Source: an uncultured Acidobacteriota bacterium (GTDB lineage: Bacteria; Acidobacteriota; Thermoanaerobaculia; Thermoanaerobaculales; Sulfomarinibacteraceae). From it: 64,000 nt of DNA. Every line of letters begins with the position of its first letter. Position 1 is the first letter of the stretch. The stretch spans positions 32,319 to 96,318 of the forward strand of contig CAVSIS010000053.1 in assembly GCA_963727925.1 (NCBI GenBank), in the 5' to 3' direction. The notes beneath the pieces are model-generated. The model saw only the letters and a list, made by a program, of their open reading frames with translations. It searched no databases and was not told the DNA's origin. Made by a program: the position numbers and the translations under genes. Of this stretch, positions 2,434 to 61,123 are shown piece by piece.

Positions 2434-3402
2434 CTACCCGATAGCGTGCCGCAGGTGGCCCACGATTTCCTGCAGGGCTTCGGGTCCGACGACGTCGTGG
2501 GGCAGGAGCGGGAGCTCGAGCTGGGGCAAGTCGGGGAACGTGGCCACGATCTCCTGCATGTAGCGCTTCTCCTGCTCCTTGCGCGCGGCCAGGAACGGGT
2601 GGCCGCTGGAGTCGTCGGGGAGAATCCGGTTGACGACCAGCCCGCCTACCGGGACCTTGAATCGGCGCAGCATGGTGACCGCCTTCGCGGTCTCGAGGAT
2701 CGGTAGCCGCTCGGCGAGAAGCACGAAGATGAACGCGGTCTCTCCGGGATTCAAGAGGAGGATCCGCATCTGGTAGAACTTCCGGCGCCGCGCGGTGAGG
2801 ATCTTCTCGACCGGGTCGGACGACTCCTCCTCCGGCGCCCCGCCCACCGTCATCTGGCGCCACATCCCGGACAACTCGTTGACCCGCTTGCGTCGCTCGA
2901 GCAGGCCGTCGATCCACGCCTGCAGCAGCTCGGGTAGGGTGAGTAGGCGCAGGGTGTGACCCGTGGGTGCGGTGTCGAAGACCACCAGGTCGTACTGGTC
3001 GTGGACCGTCAGCACCAGGTCCGCCACGCGGTCGAAAAGCGCCGCCTCCTCGGCGCCGGGCGACACCCGGGCGATCTCCACCTGGCGCTCCATCTCGGCG
3101 CGCAGGTGCTCGGGAGCGACCCGCAGGAGATGGATGCGCACCCGGTCGATGTACTCTGCGGCGGCCTTCTCGGAGTCGATCTCCAGGGCCCAGAGGTGCT
3201 CGGTAATCCTCCGCTCGGTCGGGCCGAGCTCGGTCTCGAGGATGTCCCCGGTGGAGTGCGCGGGATCGGTGGACACGAGCAGGGTGCGCCGTCCCCCTTG
3301 GGAGGCGAGCAGGGCGAACGCGGTCGCGCAGGTGGTCTTGCCGACTCCGCCCTTGCCGCCGAAGAAAAGGATCCGGCGGTCGAGCCAGTGAGGTTCGTTC
3401 AT
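2434..3402 (-). CDS. ArsA/GET3-family ATPase (single domain)
   Basis: GGKGGVGKTT deviant Walker A, STDPAHS and DTAPTGHTLRLL signatures. Start MNEPHW at 3402. Confidence 0.92.
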   Translation of the reverse strand: MNEPHWLDRRILFFGGKGGVGKTTCATAFALLASQGGRRTLLVSTDPAHSTGDILETELGPTERRITEHLWALEIDSEKAAAEYIDRVRIHLLRVAPEHLRAEMERQVEIARVSPGAEEAALFDRVADLVLTVHDQYDLVVFDTAPTGHTLRLLTLPELLQAWIDGLLERRKRVNELSGMWRQMTVGGAPEEESSDPVEKILTARRRKFYQMRILLLNPGETAFIFVLLAERLPILETAKAVTMLRRFKVPVGGLVVNRILPDDSSGHPFLAARKEQEKRYMQEIVATFPDLPQLELPLLPHDVVGPEALQEIVGHLRHAIG

Positions 3403-3424
3403 CGGGTCCTCGAGGAAAAGGCGC

Positions 3425-3443
3425 GGGGCCCCGCCGGGGCCCC
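3425..3443 (-). promoter_or_regulatory. Candidate bacterial SECIS hairpin
   Basis: GGGGCCCC-GGC-GGGGCCCC begins 11 nt 3' of the in-frame UGA at 3455-3457. Confidence 0.6.
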
Positions 3444-3448
3444 GGTCG

Positions 3449-3727
3449 TCAGCATCATCTGAAGCCCCCGGGGGGCGACTTCTCCATTCCCTGACGCAGG
3501 TGCCACGCATGGAAGCGCTCGAGCATCGCGGGCAGCAGCTCCAGGGTGTAGTAGTTCACCGGGTTGGGAATACCCATCATGTCCGAGAAGCAGAGCAGGA
3601 GGAAGAGATCCTCCTCGTCGCGGTGGCGGCGCGCCGCCACCGACCGGTACGGCGAGAAGAAAAGCTCGTCGTAGAACTCGTTGAACCGTCGCCAACGCTC
3701 TCGCAGCCGTTGCCAGAAGGAGCTCAC
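3449..3727 (-). CDS. cory-CC-star-like small protein, predicted selenoprotein ending U-C-stop (92 aa)
   Basis: GTG overlaps the cstA stop. Motif EEDLFLLLCFSDMMGIPNPVNYYTLELLP...FHAWHLRQGMEKSP. 3' codons TTC AGA TGA TGC TGA. Confidence 0.8.
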
Positions 3728-5424
3728 TTCTCTGCCGTCTCTGGAAGCGAAACGGGGGGCCGGCGCAGTGCCAGGTACGCCTCGAGCGCCATCCACACTG
3801 CGGAGAACAGCACGATCACGCCCATGACGCCCATCAGGTAGTTGGGCTTGTCCCCGAACAGCCATCTGCCCAGACTGGTGAGCATGGCCCAGGTGGTCAT
3901 GACGAGCAGGAAGGCCATCGGGAGCATGACCGGTAGGATGTTGCGCCCGAGCCGCCTGAGGTAGACCGCGATCACGATCAGCGAGAGCGCCGCCAGGAGC
4001 TGGTTGGTGGTGCCGAAGAGCGGCCAGATGACAAGGCCGCCGGTGCCAACCCCGCCGCCGGGAGCGTGGGCGCCGAAGGCGAGCGCCAGGCAGGCCGCGA
4101 CGGCGATGGTGGTGGACACGGTGGGCTCACTGAGGAACTTGATGTCGTACTGCTCGCCCAGCTCGGCGACGATGTAGCGCTGGAGGCGGACGCCGGTGTC
4201 CATGGTGGTCGCGGCGAAGCTGACCACGATGACCGCTGCGAAGACCTGTCCCACCGGCACCGGCACGCCGAGATTCTCCGCCATCTGGGCGACGCCGTTG
4301 ACGAAGTTGCCCGCGGCCCCGCCGGAGGCGGCGCCCCAGCTGCTAAAGAGGGCAGACCAGTCGGCACGGGTGGCGGCGATACCCGCCGTCACCACCAGGA
4401 TCGAGCCCAACGCGAGCGCGCCCTCACCCACCGCCCCCATGTAGCCGACGAACTTCGCGTCGGTCTCCTTGTCGAGCTGTTTGGACGAGGTGCCGGAGGA
4501 GACCAGCCCGTGGAAGCCCGAGATGGCGCCGCAGGCGATGGTGATGAACAGGATCGGGAGGATCGGGGGGGCCCCGGCGGGAGAGGGGTTGTAGGCTGGC
4601 GCCATGATGGTGGGGTTGCCGACCGCCATGCCGATATAGAGGACGCCGAGGCCGACGATGAGCTCGTGGGAGTTGATGTAGTCCCGCGGCTGCAGGAGCA
4701 ACCACACCGGAAGGCGGGAGGCCGCCCAGGCGTAGAGGAACAGCACCACCACCCAGAATCCGGCGGGGCCGAGCCCGAGGAAGTGCTCGGGAATGACTAC
4801 CGGCATCTTGGCGCCGTACCAGACCATGACGTAGAGTGCGATGAGAGCGCCGATGGAGGGCCACAGCAGCTTGCCGCCCTTGCGGTAGATGATCCAGCCG
4901 ACCAGGATCGCGACCGGGATTTCGAACCAGATCGGCACGACGCTGCCGGGGAACTTCACGAACAGCCGCGCGATCACGATCGCGAACACCGCGTTCACCA
5001 TCAGCAGCAGCAGGAAGATCACGATCATGAACAGGGTGCGGGAGCGCCTGGACAGCACCTGCTCGGTGAGCGAGCCCATCGAGCGCGCCTTGAAGCGGGA
5101 CGAGATCCAGAGGGTGCCGAAGTCGTGGGCGCCGGCGAAGAAGATCGTGCCGAAGATAACCCAGAGGAGAGCCGGGAGCCAGCCCCAGTACACGGCGATG
5201 GCCGGCCCGACGATCGGCGCCGCACCGGCGACCGAGGTGAAGTGGTGACCCCACAGCACGTGCTTGTTGGTCGGCACGAAGTCGACCCCGTCCTGAAACT
5301 CATGGGCCGGGGTCACGAAGTTGGGGTCGAGCTTGTAGATCTTTTCAGCCAGGAACTTCGCGTAGAACCGGTACGCAATGAGGAAGGCACCAAGACCTAA
5401 GATCGCCAGATAGATCGCCTTCAT
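3724..5424 (-). CDS. cstA: Carbon starvation protein A family transporter
   Basis: TPAHEFQDGVDFVPT, GHHFTSVAGAAPIVGP, ITIACGAISGFH and WPLFGTTNQLLA motifs, many TM helices. ATG at 5424 with GGAGGAG SD. Confidence 0.95.
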   Translation of the reverse strand: MKAIYLAILGLGAFLIAYRFYAKFLAEKIYKLDPNFVTPAHEFQDGVDFVPTNKHVLWGHHFTSVAGAAPIVGPAIAVYWGWLPALLWVIFGTIFFAGAHDFGTLWISSRFKARSMGSLTEQVLSRRSRTLFMIVIFLLLLMVNAVFAIVIARLFVKFPGSVVPIWFEIPVAILVGWIIYRKGGKLLWPSIGALIALYVMVWYGAKMPVVIPEHFLGLGPAGFWVVVLFLYAWAASRLPVWLLLQPRDYINSHELIVGLGVLYIGMAVGNPTIMAPAYNPSPAGAPPILPILFITIACGAISGFHGLVSSGTSSKQLDKETDAKFVGYMGAVGEGALALGSILVVTAGIAATRADWSALFSSWGAASGGAAGNFVNGVAQMAENLGVPVPVGQVFAAVIVVSFAATTMDTGVRLQRYIVAELGEQYDIKFLSEPTVSTTIAVAACLALAFGAHAPGGGVGTGGLVIWPLFGTTNQLLAALSLIVIAVYLRRLGRNILPVMLPMAFLLVMTTWAMLTSLGRWLFGDKPNYLMGVMGVIVLFSAVWMALEAYLALRRPPVSLPETAEK

Positions 5425-5698
5425 CGCTCCTCCCCTCCATGCTTTAGCAAGCGACCGCCGCCGGATGTCAAACCGGATCGATCTCTCGCTGGTTGCGTGG
5501 GTTCGCCCTGAGTTGATTTTCCTTGCCGGAAGCCCTGATGTCAACTGGATGCGCCGATGGCTACGGGCGGGCCCGTGGGGCGCGTCGACGCTGGGTGTGC
5601 GCCGTCATCGCCGGGCACGGCGGACTGCCCCACGAGGGAGGATCTGCCGGGGGATGCGAGGTGGGAGAGGACGGTTGGAACGTCTCGGGGCGGGCAGG

Positions 5699-59772: not shown

Positions 59773-61123
59773 CCGCCTCGCACATCGGCTCCATCGGGCC
59801 TGGCGCCTCTCCGGCCGCGGTCGCTGCCGTGACCGCCGCGACCCGAAAGGCCCCCCGGCGCGGCATGGTGCAGTGGCCGACCCATGCGGATTCGGCCAGG
59901 CTCCCGTCGGCGAGGCGGTGCTGCAGCCACCCGACGAGATACCGCGACGGCGGAAGGTCGAAGCCGGCGCGGCGTCCGATCACCCAGCGCCGGTTGACCG
60001 CCTCGTGGGACCCGACCGGGCTCGTCAGCAGCAGCGGCAGGCTGAGTGCGGCGATGAACACGAGCTCGCTCGGCTTGGTCACCAAGAGGTCGGCCTCGGC
60101 GAGGAGCGCGTTGAAGGCCCGGTAGTAGCTCGCGAAGCTCTGCTCATGGAGGACATGCAACGCGGAAGCGGGAAGATCGCTGAGGCCGAGCCCGTCGATC
60201 GCTCTTCGGAATCGGGCGGCGACCTCGGAGCGGACCCCGGCGACCAAGGCGAGCCGGAGCGCGCCGCGTCGCAGCTCCGGCGCGAGCGCCGCGAGCAGGG
60301 GCCGTACGCCGTGCGCCTGGGCGCCGGCTCCGCCGACGGCGAACACGAGCAGTGGCGGGCAACCGCGTTCGCCCGCGGGTAGGTGGCCGAGGGTCGCTTC
60401 CACCCTGCGTCGTCGGCCGTCGAAGAAGGCCCGGCTTGGGTCAAGGCGGGCCAGGCGCGCTGCCAGGTTTCCCTTGAGCACCCCGAGAGAACGCCCGCCG
60501 GTGAGCTCGTCCGGGAGCGGAAAGCCGGTGAAGTGGATCCGATCCGCCGGGACGCCGTACGAGCGCAGGCGCCGCGATGCCCGGCGTGAGGGCACGCAGT
60601 AGACGATCCGGCTTTCTTCCGGCTTGACCGAGACCCAGATCCGATGCAGATCGCTGTCGGTGACCACACAGACGACCGGCGTGTGAGCGAGCCGGTCGGC
60701 GGCGATCGCCGGCGCATAGAAGGTCGAAAGGAGCGTCTCGCCGCTGCCCTTGAGGCGCTTGGCGAGCGCACGGCCGAGGCCGGCGTCGACCAGGCGCGCC
60801 AGCCTCCGGGCCGCCAGCCCCGGAGGGACAGGGTGATGCCCGTCGCCGTCCGCGATCTCGGTCGCTGCGTCGAGCGCGAGGCGGAACGGGACGCCCGCGA
60901 CCGGGACCTGGGACATCCGCGAGACGACCTCGTAGGTCCGCCGCAGGCGCCGCCACCTGTGGGTGTCGCCCGGATCGGCGAACGGAGCGCGATCGATCGC
61001 CGCCACCTCGAGCCCGAGGTGATCGGCGAGTGCGGTGGCGGCGCGCAGGTGGCCGTAGCCCATCTCGACCGCGGCAACGAGTGTCGGCGGAAGGGCGGCT
61101 GCGGGCGTTCGGAGCTGCGGCAC
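59759..61123 (-). CDS. GT-B fold glycosyltransferase-like protein (MGDG synthase/UgtP-like); start uncertain
   Basis: MGYGHLRAA, VVTD, TGFP, ADLLVTKPSE, PVGSHEAVN. Confidence 0.65.
   Translation of the reverse strand: MPQLRTPAAALPPTLVAAVEMGYGHLRAATALADHLGLEVAAIDRAPFADPGDTHRWRRLRRTYEVVSRMSQVPVAGVPFRLALDAATEIADGDGHHPVPPGLAARRLARLVDAGLGRALAKRLKGSGETLLSTFYAPAIAADRLAHTPVVCVVTDSDLHRIWVSVKPEESRIVYCVPSRRASRRLRSYGVPADRIHFTGFPLPDELTGGRSLGVLKGNLAARLARLDPSRAFFDGRRRRVEATLGHLPAGERGCPPLLVFAVGGAGAQAHGVRPLLAALAPELRRGALRLALVAGVRSEVAARFRRAIDGLGLSDLPASALHVLHEQSFASYYRAFNALLAEADLLVTKPSELVFIAALSLPLLLTSPVGSHEAVNRRWVIGRRAGFDLPPSRYLVGWLQHRLADGSLAESAWVGHCTMPRRGAFRVAAVTAATAAGEAPGPMEPMCEAVDGD

Follow-up and report, generated by a model that had tools for sequence, protein, structure and literature searches.

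A predicted selenocysteine-cysteine C-terminus in a cory-CC-star protein encoded between cstA- and arsA-like genes of an uncultured acidobacterium

Does a TGA codon that stands two codons before the end of a small gene terminate its translation, or does it encode selenocysteine (Sec)? The question is raised by a stretch of 64,000 nucleotides (nt), hereafter the window, from contig CAVSIS010000053.1 of an uncultured Acidobacteriota bacterium (assembly GCA_963727925.1), where a small frame on the minus strand lies between a gene of the CstA transporter family and a gene of the ArsA/Get3 ATPase family. An earlier note on this DNA had described the frame as ending ...KSPPGGFR followed by TGA TGC TGA, which is correct to the base, and had proposed that the first TGA encodes Sec, so that the protein would end in Sec and cysteine (Cys). 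The proposal is supported by the alignment of the TGA with Cys, by the conserved TGY codon after it, by covariation in a downstream hairpin and by the Sec genes of related genomes. On this comparative evidence we read the small gene as a member of the cory-CC-star family in which the first of the two C-terminal Cys is replaced by Sec, giving a protein of 92 residues (roughly 10.8 kDa) with a Sec-Cys end, and we put the probability of this reading at about 0.88. The elements concerned, including a hairpin resembling a selenocysteine insertion sequence (SECIS), are as follows.

3449 to 3727, minus strand: small cory-CC-star family gene, 92 codons plus stop, read as ...GGFR-Sec-Cys-stop
3455 to 3457, minus strand: in-frame TGA, proposed Sec codon (residue 91), aligned with the penultimate Cys of the family
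3449 to 3454, minus strand: TGC (Cys92, 3454-3452) and true stop TGA (3451-3449), as read from the sequence
3425 to 3443, minus strand: SECIS-like hairpin wholly 3′ of the true stop, recognized by its stem and covariation, with an optional ninth pair 3444/3424

The frame starts with GTG (3727-3725) and reads MSSFWQRL...MEKSPPGGFR, its last Arg codon being at 3460-3458. Three other explanations of the TGA have to be considered. It may be an ordinary stop, in which case the lineage makes a tail-less (delta-CC) protein and the hairpin is an intercistronic RNA structure that terminates weakly, attenuates or affects the stability of the mRNA. It may be read through without a Sec system, by a near-cognate Trp or Cys tRNA or by lineage-specific recoding, the hairpin being a generic stimulator of read-through. 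Finally, it may have arisen by an error of sequencing or assembly, or by a recent mutation of TGC or TGT that inactivated the gene in the manner of a pseudogene.

The TGA codon and the penultimate cysteine

When the TGA was read as Cys, the small protein scored 119.1 bits with the cory-CC-star model NF041419 (cut-off 80), residues 13-92 corresponding to positions 1-80 of the 80 in the model, so the family that the earlier note had named was the right one and membership is directly established. Both terminal positions belong to this model, and the TGA occupies the place of the first terminal Cys. When the genome was searched in six frames, a single copy of the family was found, which scored 111.8 bits through the stop with one TGA reported within the match. 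The motifs GIPNP, YTLELLP, FHxWH and SP are common to the small protein and the family. The hallmark of the family, which we take from its name to be Cys-Cys-COOH, is not present as such, since the DNA reads TGA-TGC-stop and the protein has either a Sec-Cys end or no tail. In the copy of Pfam that was searched no family covered the small protein; precomputed labels of its homologs name PF25952. The family is widespread, with more than 600 occurrences in species-representative genomes, among them those of Bacillaceae, Idiomarina and its kin, Gemmatimonadota, Spirochaetes and Acidobacteriota.

In an alignment of the window protein with 36 Cys-Cys homologs, both terminal Cys were invariant and the TGA aligned with C91, the penultimate one, which is the outcome expected from the proposal of Sec. 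The silent loss of such an invariant pair would be odd if the TGA were an ordinary stop, and the position is a classic site of Cys/Sec exchange, which argues against read-through without Sec. The same codon was found in relatives. Among 61 related genomes there were five family matches above the cut-off, each with one TGA, and in 401 sampled genomes of the same class the family occurred in six, with TGA in all six, so that this class seems to have the Sec form exclusively. A sample of 401 genomes from the whole phylum gave 24 matches above the cut-off, where the TGA was confined to the window's genome and one member of the same taxonomic family, and the other 22 had no stop.

The protein collections contain the trace that Sec would leave there. 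The earlier note had predicted that gene callers truncate the protein by two residues, and of 80 clusters of homologous proteins, drawn from a collection of 5.8 billion proteins, 28 end exactly two residues short (with GFR, GFQ, GFT, GFG, GVR or TFK as the last residues), 52 end in Cys-Cys and none ends in a single Cys. One such two-short entry at NCBI is named just 'hypothetical protein'; the Cys-Cys entries are named cory-CC-star.

For comparison at the DNA level, we assembled ten distinct sequences with the TGA (loci L021 to L025, L062, L139, L141, L142 and L187). All ten read TGA-TGY-TGA, and both TGC and TGT occur as the middle codon. This codon therefore changes only synonymously, though it would be untranslated if the first TGA terminated, and this speaks against an ordinary stop. 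The second TGA was also considered as a component of the signal and was rejected as such, as 25 of 33 Cys-Cys forms with high G+C content likewise stop with TGA.

Contigs from four public sequencing runs of three studies, of which two runs may be the window's own source, were compared with the window over 3420-3554. No difference was observed at 3425-3457, and the TGA at 3455-3457, where the earlier note had asked whether reads might show a Cys codon, was kept in all of them. Elsewhere, two of the contigs depart from the window sequence, one at 9 positions and the other at 19. The public runs listed for this sequence included none of RNA.

In a weakly resolved tree of 193 distinct family sequences (FastTree, 78 columns), the label 'TGA or two-short' required five changes, against a mean of 32.8 when labels were shuffled. 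The Sec forms thus cluster in the family tree and may have a single origin. Cys46 (window 3590-3592, motif LLLCFSD) occurs in 34 of the 35 TGA or two-short forms, as against 42 of the 158 forms with Cys-Cys, in which Val is the most frequent residue here. It was considered as a specific partner of Sec, and this link was rejected because Cys46, like a few other residues, tracks the clade without being specific.

A hairpin beyond the proposed true stop

On the minus strand, the true stop is followed by the spacer CGACC (3448-3444) and by a hairpin with the 5′ arm GGGGCCCC (3443-3436), the loop GGC (3435-3433) and the 3′ arm GGGGCCCC (3432-3425). The perfect stem of 8 base pairs (bp) and the G leading its apical loop had been reported in the earlier note and are present as described; the stem begins 11 nt past the first TGA, and 11 nt is also the spacing past the UGA in the SECIS of Escherichia coli fdhF. 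RNAfold adds a C-G pair (3444/3424), making 9 bp possible, and counted from the UGA, the first G of the loop is nt 20. One study describes bacterial SECIS hairpins as usually having a stem of 6-8 bp, with a conserved G in the loop some 20 nt past the UGA (PMC4605307). The window hairpin has this geometry, with a stem of 8-9 bp, a GGC loop and the loop G at +20, and the fit of its geometry and G-first loop to the SelB-type description argues against a generic stimulator of read-through.

The occurrence of the hairpin follows that of the TGA. In all ten TGA forms, a perfect stem of at least 8 bp with the loop GGC (GGT in one) starts 9-12 nt past the TGA and places the first loop G 18-21 nt after the UGA. 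Stems of at least 8 bp were found in none of the 114 distinct Cys-Cys-form loci, where the longest was 7 bp (two loci) and a GGY loop did not occur. The 33 of them with at least 63% G+C downstream served as a control for base composition, and none had a comparable stem. In a close Cys-Cys relative (locus L140, 79% identical), TGC-TGC-TGA leads straight into the start of the ATPase gene with no hairpin between them. This distribution speaks against an ordinary stop.

In the alignment of the ten stems, all 80 cells are standard pairs, one G-U included. No variation occurs in the loop or in the four pairs next to it (CCCC-GGY-GGGG), and the lower four of the eight pairs change on both sides, from GGGG...CCCC to CCUC...GAGG, in two sequences. 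The covariation score was reached by none of 500 shuffles, and every slid register scored lower. Covariation in TGA-bearing homologs, which the earlier note had named as a check, was thus obtained, and the link between hairpin and TGA is directly established. Taken as comparative sequence data, these results place the hairpin beyond chance.

If the TGA were an ordinary stop, the hairpin could be a terminator, and the earlier note itself had cautioned that a short T run lies close to it. Indeed, four T begin 5 nt after the window stem, and a T-rich stretch is present in L025. In addition, the motif GGGGCCCC-N3-6-GGGGCCCC occurs twice in the 3.6-Mb genome, and the other occurrence (GGGGCCCC-N5-GGGGCCCC, contig C33, about 94409-94435) lies 22 nt past the stop of an OmpA-like gene, is followed by TTTTT and looks like a classical intrinsic terminator. 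Judged by this copy, stems like GGGGCCCC can terminate, but then carry a T run. The T run is missing after the stem in most TGA forms (L022, L023, L024, L062, L139, L141, L142 and L187), a scan with the terminator consensus did not call the window site as an intrinsic terminator, and termination ahead of the ATPase gene would be unexpected because that gene comes next after the small one in 126 of 128 family loci. The caution is therefore weakened.

Selenocysteine genes and the weight of the alternatives

The window's genome assembly, 79% complete, is divided into 58 contigs. Its genes include selB, whose product (335.5 bits, cut-off 242) has the SelB beta-barrel and a C-terminal SelB winged-helix domain (46.3 bits), and selD (368 bits), which adjoins a gene resembling those for cysteine desulfurase or selenocysteine lyase. 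Four relatives with the TGA form, 93-98% complete, all have selA and a tRNA-Sec of 95 nt that scores 71-78 bits; a fifth (G589) also has selA, and selB is present in all five. The presence of Sec genes in the lineage is thus directly established, and the finding of selA, selB and tRNA-Sec in all TGA-form relatives tested argues against read-through without Sec.

Several results weigh against the proposal of Sec. In the window's 79%-complete genome selA was not found with two models, and tRNA-Sec was not found by aragorn, so of the four Sec genes that the earlier note had proposed to look for, selB and selD were recovered. The region that carries selA in a genome of the same genus has no counterpart in the window's assembly, flanks included, and the corresponding tRNA-Sec region has three short matching stretches there, none at the tRNA itself. 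These results fit missing sequence rather than gene loss, so that absence from the assembly is not evidence of absence from the genome, and the full set of Sec genes in the window's genome is presumed. Besides, selA was present in all four Cys-Cys-form acidobacterial genomes tested; the machinery is necessary and not sufficient, and does not predict the Sec form.

Other points on the same side concern the genome and the hairpin. No second selenoprotein was identified in the window's genome with hairpin scans, which are unspecific: a scan for TGA followed by a GGY-loop hairpin gave 236 matches. With the apical motif CCCGGYGGG, a single further candidate preceded by a long frame was obtained and rejected, its frame being spurious and Arg/Pro-rich, and the formate dehydrogenase alpha-subunit model TIGR01553 had no match in this genome. 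The covariation comes from two sequences with one alternative stem, and may reflect a single event. The folding energy of the window hairpin is ordinary (z = -0.62, 54 of 200 shuffles folding as well), and since the hairpin is no more stable than G+C-rich shuffles, the argument for it rests on comparison and not on energy. Finally, an Rfam scan of 3300-3600 gave only chance-level matches (E > 2).

Some further observations were made on the Sec genes. Two matches to RF01852 in the window's genome (48.8 and 48.7 bits, just above the threshold) were rejected as tRNA-Sec because they coincide with tRNA-Ser genes. Aragorn made no tRNA-Sec call and reported an 81-nt 'tRNA-???' (third contig, 60594-60674) with a two-base anticodon call, cg. 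On contig C49, where the two genes lie at L008:25-1137 and L008:1216-2514, the desulfurase-family gene before selD scored 207 bits with the SclA selenocysteine lyase model, below the cut-off. In the longest frame for selD, about 95 residues come ahead of the model start, and the true start of the gene is uncertain. The gene selA often sits directly upstream of selB, and a 475-codon open frame (contig C56, L001:57-1484) ends at the start of selB; it has no NCBIfam match, the selA models are empty there, and the frame probably arose by chance in DNA of high G+C content or belongs to an unrelated gene.

Of the alternatives, the ordinary stop survives best. It accords with the T residues near the window stem and in L025, with the terminator-like copy of the stem elsewhere in the genome, with the unexceptional folding energy and with the missing selA and tRNA-Sec; nevertheless, given the retained TGY codon, the invariant Cys pair and the restriction of the hairpin to TGA forms, we consider it unlikely. 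Read-through without a Sec system draws on the predicted status of Sec at this site and on the ability of stable structures downstream of stop codons to stimulate read-through. However, TGA is also an ordinary stop in the same operon, where it terminates the cstA-family gene, and together with the exchange with Cys, the form of the hairpin and the Sec genes of the relatives this makes such read-through very improbable. An error or a recent inactivating mutation, suggested by the single base that separates TGA from TGC or TGT and by the draft state of the genome in 58 contigs, is already effectively refuted by the identical TGA in ten distinct DNAs from separate genomes and metagenomes and in the contigs of the four public runs compared above, by the 28 of 80 protein clusters that end at the same place, and by a small gene that is otherwise intact and conserved.

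Gene context, proposed mechanism and known relatives

The small gene lies between two larger genes of the same strand, as the earlier note had placed it, and the profile matches given below confirm the identity of both.

3724 to 5424, minus strand: CstA-family transporter gene, ATG at 5424 taken as the start, stop TGA at 3726-3724
2434 to 3402, minus strand: ArsA/Get3-family ATPase gene, 322 amino acids, GAGGA 5 nt 5′ of its ATG

The transporter gene matched PF02554 (CstA) with 462.6 bits in the Pfam profile search, and NF011590 with 242 bits, under the cut-off of 1188. The ATPase matched TIGR00345 with 268 bits (cut-off 135) and PF02374 with 252.8 bits. The stop of the cstA-family gene and the GTG of the small gene overlap in GTGA (3724-3727), an arrangement typical of translational coupling, and 3′ of the hairpin are found GCGCC, TTTT (3419-3416), GAGGA (3411-3407) and, at 3402, the start codon ATG of the ATPase. 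A sigma-70-like promoter match was noted on the minus strand close upstream of the cstA-family gene (window 5516-5544; TTGACA, 17 nt, GAAAAT, 10/12).

This gene order is general in the family. An ATPase homolog lies directly downstream in 126 of 128 family loci and a CstA homolog upstream in 110, with both present in 108. In 18 Cys-Cys-form loci, noted in one acidobacterial family (L173-L183), the ATPase gene is directly downstream and there is no CstA homolog within 1.5 kb upstream; because these loci keep the ATPase, it accompanies the small protein more constantly than CstA does. The window ATPase has a single Cys, and an alignment of 26 ATPase homologs has no invariant Cys column, so the tail of the small protein holds the only conserved thiol/selenol pair seen in the two proteins.

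The predicted structure of the small protein has a mean predicted local distance difference test score (pLDDT) of 74.3 and is helical to residue 78, and residues 79-92 are coil with pLDDT 55-58. Because of this low-confidence coil, the Sec-Cys pair is placed on a flexible tail. A search of the PDB for similar folds with the predicted structure found no relative, the best E-value being 3.3.

In the mechanism that we propose, the UGA at 3457-3455 would be decoded by Sec-tRNA(Sec) delivered by SelB, and SelB would be recruited by the 8-9-bp hairpin with the GGC loop (3443-3425), which would act as a bacterial SECIS beyond the real stop. If decoding failed, release at the UGA would give a protein just two residues shorter. 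By analogy with vicinal Cys/Sec tails, the Sec-Cys-COOH on its flexible tail may be the working end of a small accessory protein, serving in redox reactions or in binding a soft metal or thiol, and this protein would act together with the co-transcribed CstA-type transporter and ArsA/Get3-like ATPase. The vicinal Sec-Cys might form a selenenylsulfide or bind a soft ligand, and Sec would single out the penultimate residue as the reactive one. For this protein we infer the insertion of Sec, its dependence on SelB binding and the chemistry of the tail.

We next compared the locus with known systems. The window gene shares its order of neighbours and a full-length hidden Markov model match with the cory-CC-star family; however, the family ends in Cys-Cys-COOH and its Cys-Cys forms lack the hairpin, whereas the window protein would end in Sec-Cys-COOH and its gene has a SECIS-like hairpin 3′ of the stop. 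The KCU-star and YbdD/YjiX proteins (DUF466, PF04328 'Sel_put', NF033934) are also small and CstA-adjacent, and end in Arg/Lys-Cys-Cys or Lys-Cys-Sec. A preprint describes the KCU-star selenoprotein as encoded beside CstA-type transporters and as related, through DUF466, to E. coli YbdD/YjiX (Haft & Gwadz, bioRxiv 10.1101/2022.07.06.499078), and another study states that pyruvate uptake by E. coli needs YbdD together with CstA (PMC5847655). Two differences set the systems apart: in KCU-star Sec is the last residue (Cys-Sec) and in the window protein it would be the penultimate one (Sec-Cys), and the E. coli cstA-ybdD locus has no adjacent ArsA-like gene, while the window locus has one.

E. coli YbdD ends in ...GGARCC and matches PF04328 and, with 70 bits under the cut-off of 85, NF033934. 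A profile-profile comparison of the cory-CC-star and YbdD alignments aligned the C-terminal 41 columns through to the CC, with a probability of 52.6% and E = 1.4e-4; with a single YbdD sequence the probability was only 7%, and the DUF466 (PF04328) and KCU-star (NF033934) models had no match to the window protein at E <= 1. A common origin of the two families is suggested by these comparisons as a lead and not a proof, the homology being borderline at best.

The SECIS also has a precedent. The same preprint describes SaoC, a protein of the CD2366 family ending in CC-COOH, which has rare Cys-Sec-COOH members and a proposed SECIS after the stop, with 10 nt from the UGA to a perfect 7-bp stem and a GGU loop (bioRxiv 10.1101/2022.07.06.499078). 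On that description, the layout nearly equals that of the window's subgroup (9-12 nt, 8-9 bp, GGC or GGU loop). However, SaoC belongs to an unrelated family in the SAO locus of anaerobes, and there it is the last Cys, rather than the first, that gives way to Sec; the Sec form is also rare in that family (3 of 52), in contrast to its fixation in the window's class (6 of 6). Compared with the canonical bacterial SECIS of the E. coli fdhF type, the window hairpin likewise lies just 3′ of the UGA with the loop G about 20 nt downstream, but it is outside the coding region, has a triloop and shows no evident bulged U.

Since a C-terminal Cys-Sec beside CstA (KCU-star) and a SECIS past the stop (SaoC) have been published, the kind of system is already known and the surprise is moderate. 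Sec in the cory-CC-star family, or in the order Sec-Cys, was not found in the literature searched, which included a 2026 review with its table and the main text of the BSepDB paper, and where supplementary family lists (BSepDB Table S2, Haft & Gwadz) could hold the family.

A wider and much more speculative scheme, which we regard as doubtful, would join cory-CC-star and YbdD/DUF466 in one ancient superfamily of accessory proteins of CstA transporters, with the terminal dithiol as the working part. In this class, that part would have become a selenenylsulfide-forming Sec-Cys tail working with a Cys-less ArsA/Get3-like ATPase. The UGA would then be a selenium-dependent switch whose two products are the active protein in full length and an inactive one two residues shorter, and it could possibly tune the translation of the ATPase gene, because the SECIS sits in the spacer just upstream of the ribosome-binding site of that gene.

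The Sec reading of the small gene would add a selenoprotein family that gene calls miss, as just two residues are lost, and the correction would apply to the whole subgroup. It would also be useful to SECIS models, which assume a location in the coding region, as a clean natural example of a bacterial element that lies entirely outside it. Replacement of Cys by Sec usually marks a chemically active residue, and for this reason the penultimate Cys may be the key residue of the cory-CC-star tail, in contrast to KCU-star, where Sec is the last residue. This would give a handle on the function of the widespread small 'CC-COOH' proteins associated with transporters.

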